Source: an uncultured Candidatus Saccharibacteria bacterium
GTDB lineage: Bacteria > Patescibacteriota > UBA1384 > XYA2-FULL-43-10 > 1-14-0-10-43-13
Reading direction: 5' to 3'
NCBI GenBank assembly: GCA_964543385.1
Contig: CAZIYE010000004.1
Span: 1 to 32,000, forward strand
Length of the DNA: 32,000 nucleotides
A program made the position numbers and the translations under genes. This document shows, one piece after another, positions 28,716 to 32,000 of this stretch; the first letter of the stretch is position 1; each line of letters starts with the position of its first letter. The notes under the pieces were generated by a model. That model was not told the DNA's origin. It saw only the letters and a list, made by a program, of their open reading frames with translations, and did not search any database.

Positions 28716-30173
28716 CTATTTCCCAAAATTAATTGATGAAAGCGGGATATTAGCAAGAAATTCAACCATCCGCAGAATATATTCAAGACCTGGCCATAAT
28801 GCTGCAACTGCAACTTTGCCAATTGGATAACAAATAATACCAAGTAAGCCAGTGGCAAATGTGGCAAGCATAATCCAAGGAACTATCCAGACTACGAGGA
28901 TATTGGCGATTGGCGAAATTATAGAAACTAAGCCAAATTGGCAGAGAATCAGTGGAGTAACCGCAAATTGTGCACCCAAAGTTTCAGATAATGCTAACCT
29001 TACATTTTCCGGTAAGAAATTTGTCCTTTTCTTCTCTAGATATCGGGCTATCACCGGAGCCAAATAAATCAATCCGGCAAAGGCCAAGAAGGATAACTGG
29101 AAGCCAATATCATATGGCAAAATGTATGGATTCATCAAGACCATAACCATTGCTGCAAGAAGTAATAAATTAGTTTGATCTGCTCTTCTTCCGATGGTTG
29201 AGCCGAATAAGATGAGTAAAGAAAATATTGCTGCTCGAACTACGCTCGCCGAACCTCCGGTCATGACAACAAAGAGTGTAACTAAAATTATGCCCAGCAA
29301 AAAAGTTTGTCGACGGCCAAGATATATGACTAAAGATTTGGCGAATATTGCGATTAGGATTGTGACGTTAAAGCCCGACAAGGCAATAATATGAGTAAGT
29401 CCTGTTTTCTGGAGATCAAGCATCAGATCGTCCGGAATATTTTTCTTGACACCCAGCAATATACCAGAAGCTAAAGATGAGTGTGGCTCTGGCAATAATC
29501 TATTGAGAGAATTTTCAAAAGTGTTTGCTATGTTGTATAGAAAACCATATACCCTATCTGTTGGATTGGCTGAAAAACCTTGGAAACTAATTTTTGTAGG
29601 GCTTTTTATCTCTCCGACAATATGCCATCTCTTGAGATAGTTTTTATAGTCAAAACCAGAAAAATTCTCTGGTTCTGAAATTTTACCCTGCAAATTTAAA
29701 TATTCACCGAAATGATATTCTGGAAATGTAGGAAGACGAACAATTACTTTTGCCCCAATCATCTCTTCTGAAGTGGCACCGTCTGCTAAGCATTTCTCGA
29801 TGCTAATAACGACCTTTTGATTTTTGTAGTTTGGCTCAGGCCTCTGAGATATCTTTCCGACTATCTCTAAATCCTTTTCAAATGTTATATTTCGCTGATT
29901 TTTCCAATCATTGTATGAATAAAATCCAGATCCCAAAAAAAGAAAAAACAGACAAAAAGAGATAAGAACCAAAATTTTTGATTTGAACAAATAGTTAAAG
30001 AGTGCGGCACAAAGTAGTGCAATAATTACATATAAAAATATCTGCCACGACACGGAAAAATTAATATTTACGAGAGAGGCAATAAAAATACCAGCAAGAA
30101 ACGATGAACAGAGGACCGTAAAAATACGGTATGGATAATAAATATCTTTAAAGATTTTAGCTAGAGAAGCCAT
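28716..30173 (-). CDS. comEC: ComEC/Rec2 DNA-uptake channel (OB-fold/DUF4131 + Competence domains), lacking the MBL domain
   Basis: 485 aa. N-terminal TMs, an OB-like 'KVVISIEKC...GAKVIVRLP...GEYLNLQGKI' segment, and a competence core 'LASGILLGVKKNIP...TGLTHIIALSGFNVTIL'. Confidence 0.85.
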   Translation of the reverse strand: MASLAKIFKDIYYPYRIFTVLCSSFLAGIFIASLVNINFSVSWQIFLYVIIALLCAALFNYLFKSKILVLISFCLFFLFLGSGFYSYNDWKNQRNITFEKDLEIVGKISQRPEPNYKNQKVVISIEKCLADGATSEEMIGAKVIVRLPTFPEYHFGEYLNLQGKISEPENFSGFDYKNYLKRWHIVGEIKSPTKISFQGFSANPTDRVYGFLYNIANTFENSLNRLLPEPHSSLASGILLGVKKNIPDDLMLDLQKTGLTHIIALSGFNVTILIAIFAKSLVIYLGRRQTFLLGIILVTLFVVMTGGSASVVRAAIFSLLILFGSTIGRRADQTNLLLLAAMVMVLMNPYILPYDIGFQLSFLAFAGLIYLAPVIARYLEKKRTNFLPENVRLALSETLGAQFAVTPLILCQFGLVSIISPIANILVVWIVPWIMLATFATGLLGIICYPIGKVAVAALWPGLEYILRMVEFLANIPLSSINFGK

Positions 30174-30298: not shown

Positions 30299-30793
30299 AT
30301 GAAAAAAGAAGATAAAAAAACCGTAAAACAGGAAGAAGCTCCCGAGGTTTCTGAAAATGAGCAAAAAATCGGCGAACTAACGCTTGGATGGCAACGCTGT
30401 CAGGCTGATTTTCAAAATTACCGCCGCCAAGTTGAAGAAGACCGTAAAAAATTACTTAAACTAGCTAATGCCGACCTTATGATGGAGATATTACCGGTAT
30501 TAGACAATTTTCAGCTTGCAGCTAAACATGTGCCGACAGAATTAGAAACCAACAATTGGGCACAAGGAATCAGACAAATCGAAAAGCAACTTGAGACTAT
30601 ATTGGAGAGCGAGGGCCTGACTCGAATACAGACTGTTGGCTCTGAATTTAATCCCCATCTTCACGAAGCTATAGAACACGTTGAGTCCAATCAGCCAGAG
30701 GGTATAATTACCGAAGAAATCTCTGCCGGTTATGAATTTGATGGTACATCACTTCGACCGGCTAAAGTGAAAGTCTCATGCGGAAATAAATAA
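30299..30793 (+). CDS. grpE: Nucleotide exchange factor GrpE (short form)
   Basis: 164 aa. 'RCQADFQNYRRQVEEDR', 'ILPVLDNFQLA', 'FNPHLHEAI' are GrpE blocks. Confidence 0.9.
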   Translation: MKKEDKKTVKQEEAPEVSENEQKIGELTLGWQRCQADFQNYRRQVEEDRKKLLKLANADLMMEILPVLDNFQLAAKHVPTELETNNWAQGIRQIEKQLETILESEGLTRIQTVGSEFNPHLHEAIEHVESNQPEGIITEEISAGYEFDGTSLRPAKVKVSCGNK

Positions 30794-30911
30794 TTTGCGT
30801 AATATATAGCAGACTTAATTAGCTATCGACTTAGACAGCTTGTCTTTTTTGTGTTATAAGGAATTCAGTGCCAATCATGGCCGAAACTCCCCTTTTCAAA
30901 AGGAGCCCCAT

Positions 30912-31220
30912 ATGTTGTTTGTGGACACATCACTGCTGTCAGCAGCAGGGGCAGTGATCTTCCGTGTCGGAGGTGGATTAGAAAGCATCACCATCGATGA
31001 CGTTGCACGGATCGTTGAACTTTACAACGGCGAAAGCAAGGAGCGACTCCTTGCACTGGCCTACATCGACGCGATCAAGGCGCGTGCCGCCTCGGACGGC
31101 AACACCGGCAAATTCGCCGAAATCGCCGCTGCGCTCGATGCTGCGCTCACCCCACGCGAGAAGGACATAACTCCCCTTCTCGAATCACTCCATCTGCCCG
31201 GAATGGGTGATGAGGGATAA
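30912..31220 (+). CDS. Hypothetical Ala-rich acidic protein on a high-GC islet between grpE and dnaK
   Basis: AAGGAG SD at 30900-30905, then ATG 30912. 102 aa: MLFVDTSLLSAAGAVIFRVGGGLESITIDDVARIVELYNGESKERLLALAYIDAIKARAASDG... Hand-counted GC is 175/309 (~57%). Followed by a GC-rich terminator. No family recognised. Confidence 0.6.
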   Translation: MLFVDTSLLSAAGAVIFRVGGGLESITIDDVARIVELYNGESKERLLALAYIDAIKARAASDGNTGKFAEIAAALDAALTPREKDITPLLESLHLPGMGDEG

Positions 31221-31254
31221 CATCCTCGAAAGCAAAAAGAGAGGGATCTCCACG

Positions 31255-31283
31255 CCGCCCATGGATTGGGCGGTTTTGCTTTT
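31255..31283 (+). terminator. Rho-independent terminator after the high-GC ORF
   Basis: 7-bp GC-rich stem ccgccca/tgggcgg, 5-nt loop, then ttttgctttt. Confidence 0.6.
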
Positions 31284-31351
31284 CTGGTCTTAATTTTGTC
31301 AATTACACACAATAAAATCGGATTGTCGCTTATAAAAAATCAAAAAAGGTC

Positions 31352-31400
31352 TTGACAAAATGTAAAGTCTACTTTACATTTTATATGTATTGGTTATAAT
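31352..31400 (+). promoter_or_regulatory. Candidate tandem sigma-70 promoters for dnaK
   Basis: P1: TTGACA (31352-57), 17 nt, TACATT (31375-80). P2: TTTACA (31373-78), 16 nt, TATAAT (31395-400). About 70-90 nt upstream of the dnaK ATG. Confidence 0.5.
31357..31382. promoter_or_regulatory. Perfect 12-2-12 inverted repeat (candidate operator) overlapping the dnaK promoter
   Basis: AAAATGTAAAGT-ct-ACTTTACATTTT. The arms are exact reverse complements. It spans the P1 spacer and -10 and the P2 -35. Confidence 0.5.
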
Positions 31401-31470: not shown

Positions 31471-32000
31471 ATGTCAAAGATCATCGGTATTGACCTTGGT
31501 ACTACAAATTCAGCCGTGGCTGTAATGGAAGGTGGCGAGGCAAAGATCATTACTTCAAGCGAAGGTGGACGCACAGTACCATCGATAGTTGCAGAAACTA
31601 AAAAGGGAGATAGATTAATTGGCCAACTAGCCAAGAGACAAGCTGTCACAAATGGTGATAATACTATTTTTTCGGTCAAACGTTTTATTGGTCGCAAATT
31701 TGATGATCCAGAAGTTCAGGCAGACCTCAAGAAAATGCCTTATGAGACCAAAAAGGCCTCTGATGGCTCCGTCCGAGTAATTATGAATGGCAAGGAATAT
31801 AGTTCTCAGGAAATCTCTGCTTTCATTCTACAAAAAATTAAGGCTGATGCTGAAACCTATCTAGGTGGCAAAGTAACAGAAGCTGTTATCACTGTACCTG
31901 CGTATTTCAATGATGCACAACGCCAAGCTACCAAAGACGCCGGTAAGATTGCTGGGCTTGAGGTAAAAAGAATTATCAACGAGCCAACAGCTGCGGCTCT
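31471..32000 (+). CDS. dnaK: Molecular chaperone DnaK (Hsp70), N-terminal part; continues past the window
   Basis: AGGAG SD 6 nt upstream. [22 protein letters not shown]...VPSIVA...[37 protein letters not shown]. Not in the ORF track because there is no stop in the window. Confidence 0.95.

Follow-up and report, generated by a model that had tools for sequence, protein, structure and literature searches.

A GC-rich orphan gene cassette of probable lineage-specific origin in the grpE-dnaK slot of a Patescibacteria genome

The GC-rich islet lying between grpE and dnaK is best read, with a probability of about 0.6, as a lineage-specific, stand-alone orphan cassette that resembles a phage moron, placed in a neutral landing site and drawn from the genes of Patescibacteria or of their mobile elements. 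The cassette would consist of a housekeeping-type extended -10 promoter, a stem-loop leader, a strong SD, an ORF of 102 codons and its own terminator. Below, "the window" is the whole stretch of DNA that was analysed (32,000 nt), and the features of the islet and its flanks are collected in Table 1.

Table 1. Features of the islet and of the flanking genes, in window positions
Feature	Position	Strand	Remarks
grpE, upstream neighbour, 164 aa	30299..30793	+	Pfam GrpE PF01025, E 2e-40; 41% GC, GC3 33%
Promoter-like site of the cassette (putative)	30831..30860	+	-35 TTAGAC, 18-nt spacer, extended -10 TGT-TATAAG; AT-rich DNA
Weak hairpin + T6 after grpE	30833..30850	+	folding z -0.03, at shuffle level
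5' leader stem-loop GCCA-AUCA-UGGC (GCCAATCATGGC), predicted	30870..30881	+	about 10 nt past the -10
Maximal GC-rich block (leader, ORF and terminator stem)	30879..31273		395 nt, 56.7% GC
CU-rich anti-SD stretch AACTCCCCTTTT adjoining the SD	30885..30905	+	small predicted hairpin partly covers the SD
ORF, 102 aa, ORFan by the searches used	30912..31220	+	coding statistics, AF2, homology and fold searches
Intrinsic terminator of the cassette (predicted)	31254..31284	+	8-bp stem (6 G-C), 5-nt loop, tail TTTGCTTTTC
Putative own promoter(s) of dnaK with 12-2-12 palindromic operator (31357-31382)	31352..31400	+	conserved in the family
dnaK 5' part (full length 621 aa), downstream neighbour	31471..32000	+	PF00012 HSP70

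Composition, coding capacity and orphan status of the islet

The islet is compositionally foreign, synonymous sites included. The abrupt change that the sequence-only reading had placed at about 30870 to about 31290 is borne out by the maximal-scoring segment, 30879-31273, which has a score of 30.8 against at most 15.7 in base shuffles of the window. Among all the 309-nt windows, the richest in GC belongs to the islet (30963-31271, 57.6%, about 5 SD over the window mean), and the runner-up outside this peak reaches 48.2%. Our recount of the ORF agrees with the earlier count of 175 G+C in 309 nt, or 56.6%, against a background of 37.2% in the window and 38.3% genome-wide. The GC3 of the ORF is 60%, versus 33% in grpE and in dnaK, and the codon analysis that the first reading had proposed places the ORF more than 10 SD away from the usage of native genes.

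The ORF is very probably protein-coding, because the codon statistics pick out just its frame. The codon log-likelihood of this frame is +21.2 nats, while 2,000 shuffles gave a mean of -4.3 (sd 4.2, maximum 9.3), and only one of the six frames, the ORF's own, has a positive value. Per codon, the LLR is +0.287 for the ORF, +0.246 for the GC-rich pool and -0.239 +/- 0.049 for the native pool.

A non-coding GC-rich element with a fortuitous ORF, be it a structured RNA or what is left of a decayed sequence, is an improbable alternative. ORF length by itself is not significant, since ORFs of at least 102 codons are found in 20% of the dinucleotide shuffles of 30840-31300, which have a GC content of this kind, and genome G006 carries in the same slot a GC-rich islet that lacks a long ORF. 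The GC-rich block also folds more stably than its shuffles on both strands (z -3.3 on the plus and -4.5 on the minus strand); negative folding scores are common to other GC-rich coding genes and are thus no argument against coding. The non-coding reading is, however, at odds with a codon signal that is frame-specific and above all the 2,000 shuffles, with an SD at ideal spacing, with the order of the codon positions (GC1 > GC3 > GC2), with a plausible amino-acid composition and predicted helices, and with the result of the Rfam search of the islet, which gave no match at E <= 1. An SD followed by an ATG-initiated ORF of at least 100 codons arose in just 0.13% of the shuffles.

The product had been described as an Ala-rich acidic protein, and the counts confirm it: 16 Ala, 16 acidic and 9 basic residues, with a pI of 4.5. 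The protein is rich in Ala, Leu and Gly, has neither a signal peptide nor a TM segment and is all-helical by prediction. The AF2 model, built from the single sequence and of moderate confidence, has six helices and a pLDDT of 61.7 (about 75 in the core, residues 29-93). The product is thus small and acidic, predicted to be helical and probably cytoplasmic.

According to the homology searches, which the first reading had suggested after failing to recognise the family, the 102-aa protein is an ORFan: family, homolog and fold are all lacking in the collections searched. No homolog was found among 1.84 billion representative proteins, and a set of about 15 billion, which takes in assemblies of the same samples, has none at any level either; word-indexed and exhaustive phmmer searches returned the protein itself and three repeat-protein artefacts, nothing more. 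GTDB genomes, JGI metagenomes and IMG/VR hold no relative, blastn against plasmids and tblastn against phages with the ORF gave no match, and tblastn within its own genome found no paralog. Among family profiles, Pfam, NCBIfam and PADLOC gave 0 hits each and PHROG a best E of 0.14, thus no match to families of defence, toxin-antitoxin or phage proteins. The PDB sequence search gave no relative, and Foldseek against PDB and BFVD no fold match (best E > 3). Nor was the ORF found in 60 relatives or in a further sample of 400 genomes of the phylum. The search of the latter gave two marginal matches, both ascribed to chance; on inspection, one of them proved to be ribosomal protein L31, with 33% identity over 60 aa, and Pfam lists no L31 for the ORF.

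That the islet is a chimera of about 430 bp from assembly or binning, the alternative kept by the first reading and one that an abrupt compositional shift within a metagenome-derived genome could suggest, is very unlikely and effectively excluded. In the Logan per-run assemblies of four runs (SRR12261223, -225, -226 and -227), the ORF stands between the same flanking genes. Three aligned contigs, 1.7-25.9 kb long, are 100% identical to the window across the stretches they span, and those from SRR12261223 and SRR12261227 cross both islet junctions. All the contigs that carry the 102-aa protein have the flanks of this genome, and binning errors do not yield an internal insert between adjacent genes of one genome.

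Expression signals and the grpE-dnaK slot

Upstream of the ORF, a match of consensus level suggests promoter activity; its last -10 base is a G, which is non-canonical, and for this reason the site is missing from the list of the consensus scan. TGTGTTATA has 11 copies in the genome, of which 4 stand 50-60 nt 5' of GC-enriched ORFs, and the remaining ones include some 5' of native genes and of a tRNA. The strict extended -10 motif is present 5' of 7/30 GC-rich ORFs versus 49/748 native ORFs. The weak hairpin with T6 that had been noticed after grpE does exist, but it is no better than shuffles and overlaps the promoter-like site; read-through from grpE is therefore plausible.

The composite TGTTATAA-N(6-12)-GCCAATCWTGGC, which joins promoter and leader, has two sites only in the genome: C4:30852-30881, in the islet, and C1:657815-657842(-). 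The second copy lies upstream of another GC-rich ORF, cassette C1:657447-657791, which is also an orphan. No match to the composite was obtained in 60 other genomes, nor in reversed controls.

The canonical SD, AAGGAG, was confirmed at 30900-30905, 6 nt ahead of the ATG. As a mark of foreign origin the SD was rejected, because native genes have one too (AGGAG in dnaK). In the MFE fold it is partly covered by a 5-bp hairpin, CCUUU/AAAGG. Compared with RNA thermometers (fourU or ROSE-like), the islet has this short hairpin over part of the SD, no Rfam match at the threshold given above and no homologs for covariation. AACTCCCCTTYTC has a 14/16 direct repeat at 31169-31184, and a 10-mer of the CU-rich stretch has just 3 occurrences in the genome; both are of uncertain significance. 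At the 3' side, the GC-rich stem terminator was confirmed as a stem-loop (31254-31274) followed by a T-rich tail, with -21.9 kcal/mol and a z of -2.2. The GC-rich block thus has roughly the same extent as the predicted transcript.

The sequence-only reading had considered grpE and dnaK a unit split by the insert, which might uncouple one gene from the other, and had proposed a comparison of the spacer in sibling genomes. This comparison, covering 21 family loci (genome G001, of the same genus, is not assembled here and breaks off 12 nt short of the dnaK region), found the slot empty or with a different cargo and supports neither idea. In 21/21 loci, the sole conserved element of the spacer is the putative dnaK promoter with its 12-2-12 palindromic operator; the same operator also stands 5' of groES-, clpB/C- and XRE-HTH-regulator-like genes, and not of grpE. 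The spacer is short, 126-264 nt, in 7/21 loci and long, from 425 nt to more than 1500 nt, in 13/21, where the cargo comprises MsrA/MsrB, GTP cyclohydrolase I, NT5C, NUDIX, an oxidoreductase or unknown ORFs. The remaining locus (1/21) has an unrelated GC-rich islet.

Judged from these loci, the slot between grpE and dnaK varies, its cargo differing from genus to genus, and dnaK has a promoter and an operator of its own that are conserved in the family. Nothing would be "uncoupled", since dnaK appears to be separately promoted and the spacer to be a variable slot. The stretch from the end of grpE to the operator-controlled dnaK would be permissive across this Patescibacteria-type family. The cassette would leave the regulation of dnaK undisturbed, and at most its terminator would properly stop the read-through transcripts of grpE.

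GC-rich genes of the genome and origin of the cassette

The islet is not unique: it is a member of a genome-wide class of GC-rich genes with shared codon usage, which counts about 25-30 genes dispersed over the whole genome. Many members seem to be furnished with promoter-like, SD and terminator signals of their own, and 8 of the 10 tested lack a Pfam match. The GC-rich ORFs fold more stably than shuffles on the two strands (mean z -3.2 and -2.8, versus -1.1 and -0.9 for native genes). This excess could partly come from heterogeneity of composition. No k-mer beyond shuffle level is common to all the 28 GC-rich cassettes, and the single 12-15-mers common to the islet and the remaining genome are at chance level; the composite of promoter and leader is the sole motif link upheld. 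A donor was also sought through the OMP decarboxylase gene of the class, a search that is uninformative because the only matches, from Lachnospiraceae, are just 39-40% identical.

A lineage-specific gain is the simplest reading of these sequences, because of the foreign composition of the islet, its absence in relatives and the other cargo, or none, at the slot. The cassette would have been gained in the lineage via recombination into a neutral landing site, as the slot appears permissive throughout the family. As the sequence-only reading had remarked, the islet has no convincing terminal direct or inverted repeats, weak AT-rich ones only, and no mobility scars (integrase, flanking repeats or a tRNA target) were found at it.

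It is possible, although unlikely, that the gene is instead an old resident, inherited and fast-evolving, whose GC content and RNA structure are kept by selection (e.g., for mRNA stability), without recent import and with homologs diverged past detection. For the GC-rich gene C1:156653-157363, four relatives have distant homologs whose GC is likewise high (53-67%), between flanks of lower GC. The stable folding of the GC-rich ORFs and the coincidence of the GC-rich block with the predicted transcript would fit as well, the former under the caveat of composition heterogeneity. On the other hand, the gene has no homolog even inside the family and the slot holds other genes or nothing in the 21 family genomes, which argues for gain or replacement at family depth.

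The earlier proposal of a horizontally acquired cassette from a high-GC donor stands in part. Composition, absence in relatives and the state of the slot support the lineage-specific gain, while no donor was found; the epibiont's host, which it had favoured as the source, finds no support in the absence of a homolog from about 15 billion proteins and from the GTDB, JGI, IMG/VR, phage and plasmid sets. Recent import from a neighbour or host of high GC, for instance an actinobacterial host, is accordingly highly doubtful. A GC content of 57% versus 37%, a codon usage far off the native one and comEC, a DNA-uptake channel gene close to the islet in the same neighbourhood, would agree with it. Genes of Actinomycetota, however, typically have a GC3 well above 60%, and the 60% of the ORF is modest for such a source. 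The searches found no homolog even in the same-run assemblies, every contig bearing the protein has the flanks of this genome, and the promoter-leader, which another cassette has too, belongs to the native extended -10 type.

For the lineage-specific cassette, we infer that the source would be the flexible gene pool of Patescibacteria or of their mobile elements, not a high-GC host; this origin is suggested by the GC-rich class, not by the 102-aa gene itself. For most of the transfers detected in Patescibacteria, the donor is another member of the group (PMC12455944). The islet shares with the acquired islets described there the atypical GC and codon usage, the patchy distribution and a small genome with competence genes; it differs from them in having no nameable donor or homolog and no island-scale structure, tRNA, integrase or flanking repeats (PMC12455944).

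Likeness to known cassettes and meaning of the islet

In the cassette we see several traits of known mobile units. A phage moron, in the concept of Hendrix and Juhala, is an additional gene of deviant composition that sits between two genes of a conserved block and brings along a promoter and a terminator of its own. The islet works like a moron: it has a single ORF with a putative promoter, an SD and an intrinsic terminator, its composition is sharply unlike that of its neighbours (in total GC as in GC3), and this accessory gene is wedged between two conserved genes, neither of which is disturbed. It is not a moron in the strict sense. It lies in a cellular chromosome, flanked by comEC, grpE and dnaK and with no prophage context, its protein has no match in IMG/VR or phage records, and it is one of many GC-rich genes scattered through the genome. 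By analogy with phage morons, the protein might well act as an accessory in interactions with a host or a phage.

Unlike integron cassettes, the islet is a single cassette between housekeeping genes, and its lone 3' hairpin appears to be a plain terminator. Arbiol, Comeau and Krisch reportedly described in 2010 the PeSL (promoter-early stem-loop) units, mobile regulatory cassettes in the hyperplastic regions of T4-type phages. As in these units, a promoter-like site directly followed by a short predicted stem-loop recurs here 5' of two unrelated orphan ORFs (the two composite sites given above); in contrast, there are just two copies, in a bacterial chromosome. Tentatively, and with low confidence, the GC-rich genes could represent an undescribed Patescibacteria class of structured orphan cassettes, in which the GC-rich block equals the transcript, which are shuffled via PeSL-like modules into permissive slots and whose composition is maintained rather than ameliorating.

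By itself, the islet is one more orphan gene, and its value lies in the context. In this family grpE and dnaK would not be an operon, dnaK would be part of a palindrome-operated heat-shock regulon, and the gap ahead of its promoter would be a recurrent landing site for new genes. The 102-aa protein, unmatched among about 15 billion sequences, thereby lends itself as a compact target to tests of expression and interaction. More generally, the islet provides a clean, junction-verified case of the dispersed GC-rich single-gene units, often orphans, of AT-rich ultra-small bacteria. Should this class prove to be a specific means of gene flow, or one of specially stabilised mRNAs, it would be relevant to how symbionts with reduced genomes come by novelty.

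Composition, recurrence and coding potential of the islet

The genome under study (902,808 bp in four contigs, 98.7% complete) is a small genome of the CPR/Patescibacteria type. In the window, 677 nt separate grpE and dnaK, and base composition changes abruptly within this distance. The GC-rich stretch described by the sequence-only reading was recovered as the top-scoring GC-rich segment of the whole 32-kb window (395 nt, 56.7% GC, score 30.8; highest score among 200 base shuffles, 15.7). Indeed, G+C accounts for 175 of the 309 nt of the islet ORF, exactly as counted by hand in that reading, versus 37.2% for the window, and among all 309-nt windows GC peaks at 57.6% inside the islet (30963-31271), the runner-up being 48.2%. 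Synonymous sites are GC-shifted too, with a GC3 of 60% in the islet ORF against 33% in both grpE and dnaK. The proposed Shine-Dalgarno (SD) site and GC-rich stem terminator were both confirmed. The hairpin with T6 reported after grpE exists, although its folding equals that of shuffled sequences (z −0.03).

Coordinates of the features in the window and in related sequences
Feature	Location	Strand	Details
comEC	window 28716-30173	-	Competence and DUF4131 domains; DNA-uptake channel gene
grpE	window 30299-30793		upstream neighbour of the islet; Pfam GrpE, E 2e-40
Promoter-leader, islet	window (C4) 30852-30881		composite motif
GC-rich segment	window 30879-31273		maximal segment
SD site	window 30900-30905		AAGGAG, 6 nt 5' of the islet ATG
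Islet ORF	window 30912-31220	+	102 aa
Intrinsic terminator	window 31254-31284		8-bp stem, 6 G-C pairs, T-rich tail, −21.9 kcal/mol
dnaK promoter/operator	window 31352-31400		TTGACA at 31352 overlaps perfect 12-2-12 palindrome 31357-31382
dnaK	window, ATG 31471		downstream neighbour of the islet
Other operator sites	C1:99348, C1:569254, C2:33751		same genome
OMP decarboxylase islet	C1:369194-370784	-	two genes, 54-58% GC
114-aa ORF cassette	C1:657447-657860	-	55% GC
Promoter-leader, 114-aa ORF	C1:657815-657842		composite motif
Second slot islet	L025:2040-2470		same-family genome G006; 57-65% GC, ~400 nt
FtrB-like match	L017:2090-2199	-	genome G017

An abrupt change of this kind could also come from an assembly or binning chimera of about 430 bp, an alternative raised together with the original description. 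Five contigs are on record with the exact islet protein, and those listed come from four sequencing runs (SRR12261223, 25.9 kb; SRR12261225, 5.1 kb; SRR12261226, 18 kb; SRR12261227, 1.7 kb), the ORF having the same flanking genes in all four. The three contigs that were aligned (SRR12261223, SRR12261225 and SRR12261227) match the window at 100% identity wherever they cover it, and two of them (SRR12261223 and SRR12261227) span both islet junctions. All the contigs listed with an identical GrpE carry the islet ORF too, and none of the contigs carrying the islet protein places it in another genomic context. Because the same islet recurs in separate assemblies with adjacent genes of one genome at both sides, a chimera is not credible, and we regard it as extremely improbable.

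Length is weak evidence for the ORF at this GC content, as 20% of dinucleotide shuffles of 30840-31300 hold an ORF of at least 102 codons; an ORF of 100 or more codons that begins with ATG behind an SD site occurs in 0.13% of shuffles. A codon model trained on the 21 other GC-rich ORFs of the genome, scored in nats over an iid background, gave +21.2 for the annotated frame, the sole positive among six (the other five, −0.9 to −39, contain two to four stops each), whereas the best of six frames in 2000 shuffles averaged −4.3 (sd 4.2, maximum 9.3). The order GC1 66% > GC3 60% > GC2 44% is also a coding pattern. We place the probability that the ORF encodes a protein at roughly 85 to 90%.

As anticipated, the product is Ala-rich and acidic (102 aa with 16 Ala, 14 Leu and 10 Gly; 16 acidic and 9 basic residues; pI 4.5), and it lacks Cys, Trp and Gln. 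From the single sequence, AlphaFold2 gave an all-helical model of six helices with a mean pLDDT of 61.7, reaching about 75 in residues 29-93 and staying below 50 in residues 1-22. The family had not been recognised, and the homology searches agree: there was no match in Pfam, NCBIfam or PADLOC, the best PHROG E-value was only 0.14, and a word-indexed search of 5.8 billion protein clusters returned the protein itself alone. An exhaustive phmmer search of 1.84 billion representatives added three long tandem-repeat proteins, which we rejected as relatives since their scores arise from repeated short stretches. Nothing was found in GTDB genome contigs, IMG/VR, JGI metagenome contigs, plasmids (blastn), phages (tblastn) or PDB sequences; Foldseek of the model against PDB and BFVD gave no fold match (best E > 3), and no known RNA family matched the islet. 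There is no paralog in the genome and no six-frame match in 60 relatives. The 400 sampled genomes of the phylum yielded two marginal matches, roughly as many as chance would give; the one inspected was ribosomal protein L31. On these sequence comparisons, the protein is classed as an ORFan.

A variable slot upstream of a conserved dnaK promoter

The sequence-only reading regarded grpE and dnaK as a co-transcribed pair split by the insert, which the family comparison does not bear out. In an all-against-all blastn of the family spacers a single element proved conserved, TTGACAAAATGTAAAGT-N-TACTTTACAT, which lies immediately 5' of dnaK. It includes an operator palindrome, TGTAAAG-N3-CTTTACA, which overlaps a TTGAC(A) −35 box and is found upstream of dnaK in 21 family genomes. 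In the genome under study the same operator also precedes a groES-like, a clpB/C-like and an XRE-type HTH gene and is absent before grpE. The palindrome resembles a heat-shock regulon operator distinct from both CIRCE and HAIR, and the XRE-type HTH gene behind it is a candidate autoregulated repressor. Across the family, dnaK thus has, and is transcribed from, a promoter of its own under operator control.

Indeed, slot contents differ across the 21 same-family genomes from which the grpE locus was retrieved. The grpE-dnaK gap is short in seven (126-264 nt) and long in 13 (425 nt to >1500 nt), with unrelated contents; in the remaining one the contig ends too early for measurement. The cargo includes MsrA with MsrB, GTP cyclohydrolase I, an NT5C-type nucleotidase (three genomes), a NUDIX protein, an NAD-binding oxidoreductase (Pfam), a membrane protein, a cupin-like fragment (by eye only; the tested fragment had no Pfam match) and, in the closest assembled relative (G015, GrpE 77% identical), a minus-strand 116-aa ORF of unknown function. 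One of the 13, G006, holds an unrelated GC-rich islet in the same slot. Its minus strand bears a strong promoter (TTGACA-17-TATATT with TG), and it contains no long ORF, just short ones (50-aa Cys-rich and 40-aa Arg-rich); it could be a unit for a small RNA or a micropeptide. The stretch from the end of grpE to the dnaK promoter is a permissive landing site in this family.

In the same-genus genome G001, a contig (C82:1-563) begins 12 nt before the dnaK-matching region, and neither grpE nor comEC was found in the assembly. The contig thus breaks at the variable slot, possibly owing to strain heterogeneity at that position. G017 shows, between the divergent comEC and grpE genes, a sub-threshold Rfam match to FtrB (Francisella sRNA B; 41 bits versus a gathering score of 66, E 5e-4), with no counterpart in the window.

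A class of GC-rich genes and a shared promoter-leader

A 300-nt window scan of the genome found dozens of stretches of at least 50% GC, and a crude gene call gave about 30 ORFs of at least 50% GC versus a median of 38%, a few of them probably rRNA-antisense artefacts. Eight of the ten most GC-rich ORFs have no Pfam match, the exceptions being an OMP decarboxylase and a weak Amidase_3, and several show, by eye, signal-peptide or lipoprotein-like N-terminal leaders. In codon usage, the per-codon log-likelihood ratio of the islet ORF (+0.287) groups it with the GC-rich pool (+0.246 ± 0.084), whereas the native genes (−0.239 ± 0.049) are over 10 SD away. GC-rich ORFs fold more stably than dinucleotide shuffles on both strands, with mean z values of −3.2 and −2.8 (n=12) against −1.1 and −0.9 for native ones (n=12), which points to dense local inverted repeats or selection on RNA/DNA structure in this class; the islet gives −3.3 and −4.5.

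Three other islet proteins of the genome were searched in the 60 relatives. One had no match; another had a homolog, 51% identical, in just one other genus, where it lies within a GC-rich block; and the third had distant homologs in four genomes. The homologous stretches are all GC-rich (53-67.5%), with clearly lower-GC flanks in 5/6. As a partial test on a different islet, this agrees with a reading in which such cassettes are long-standing residents that keep their high GC. Across the class, the GC-rich block typically extends 40-80 nt past the stop codon, thus taking in a terminator. A two-gene islet on C1 encodes the OMP decarboxylase (PF00215, E 2e-42; nearest GTDB pattern matches just 39-40% identical); its other ORF, of 279 aa, matches no Pfam family. 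The pair may represent a pyrimidine-synthesis step that a reduced genome has acquired.

With the 12-mer TTTTGTGTTATA as the starting point, TGTGTTATA was found 11 times in the genome. Since some copies precede native genes and a tRNA, it represents an extended −10 promoter of the housekeeping kind; for four copies, a GC-enriched ORF with a strong SD site follows 50-60 nt downstream. A strict extended −10 motif stands ahead of 7/30 GC-rich ORFs versus 49/748 native ORFs (Fisher p 0.004), mostly showing that the former are separate transcription units. The composite TGTTATAA-N(8-10)-GCCAATCWTGGC, in which the promoter leads into a 4-bp stem-loop where the transcript begins, occurs only twice in the genome, with no match in 60 other genomes or reversed controls. 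The second site, TGTTATAA-N8-GCCAATCTTGGC, matches that of the islet and precedes an unrelated 114-aa ORF. This ORF has neither a Pfam match nor a family relative, and the word-indexed protein search returned it alone. It lies within a 3-kb stretch (C1:657.4-660.2 kb) of several small GC-enriched minus-strand ORFs among native genes. Furthermore, AACTCCCCTTCT is found near the 3' ends of both cassettes, in different reading frames. Because isolated 12-mers occur at chance level genome-wide and no k-mer is common to all cassettes, only the promoter-leader match is treated as real. It argues that the cassettes would draw on one native-type regulatory repertoire, with which direct import from an actinobacterial host fits poorly.

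Nature and origin of the islet

The islet is a coding unit with its own SD site and terminator in a variable slot, an orphan and a member of the GC-rich class. Transcription would start near 30868, from TTAGAC-18-TGT-TATAAG, and read-through from grpE may also occur, the grpE hairpin being weak. The 5' stem-loop may stabilise the mRNA, a CU-rich stretch (30885-30896) may partially mask the SD site, and the terminator would insulate dnaK. The protein is probably cytoplasmic and accessory.

In function the islet resembles a phage moron, as a unit of putative promoter, gene and terminator with deviant composition between conserved genes; since it lies outside any phage, it works like a moron but is not one. 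An integron cassette was rejected as its identity, as was a known defence or toxin-antitoxin component (no PADLOC, Pfam or NCBIfam match). Composition and distribution are those of a horizontally acquired islet, but neither a donor nor mobility scars were found. The islet belongs to a known category, that of compositionally atypical orphan genes or islets; that the GC-rich class constitutes a separate vehicle of gene flow in Patescibacteria, so far undescribed, seems rather unlikely.

Of the proposed acquisition from a high-GC host, the gain stands and the donor does not. The islet itself is real and clean. A gain within this lineage, at family depth, is well supported; no donor emerged from the searches, and the host-donor idea is unsupported. 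We infer a source in the flexible gene pool of Patescibacteria, consistent with a published study that traced the majority of detectable incoming transfers in Patescibacteria to other members of the group (PMC12455944). The comEC gene adjoins the slot region and is found immediately upstream of grpE throughout the family; its position beside the variable slot is probably a coincidence, and its proximity bears on the route of foreign DNA into the cell.
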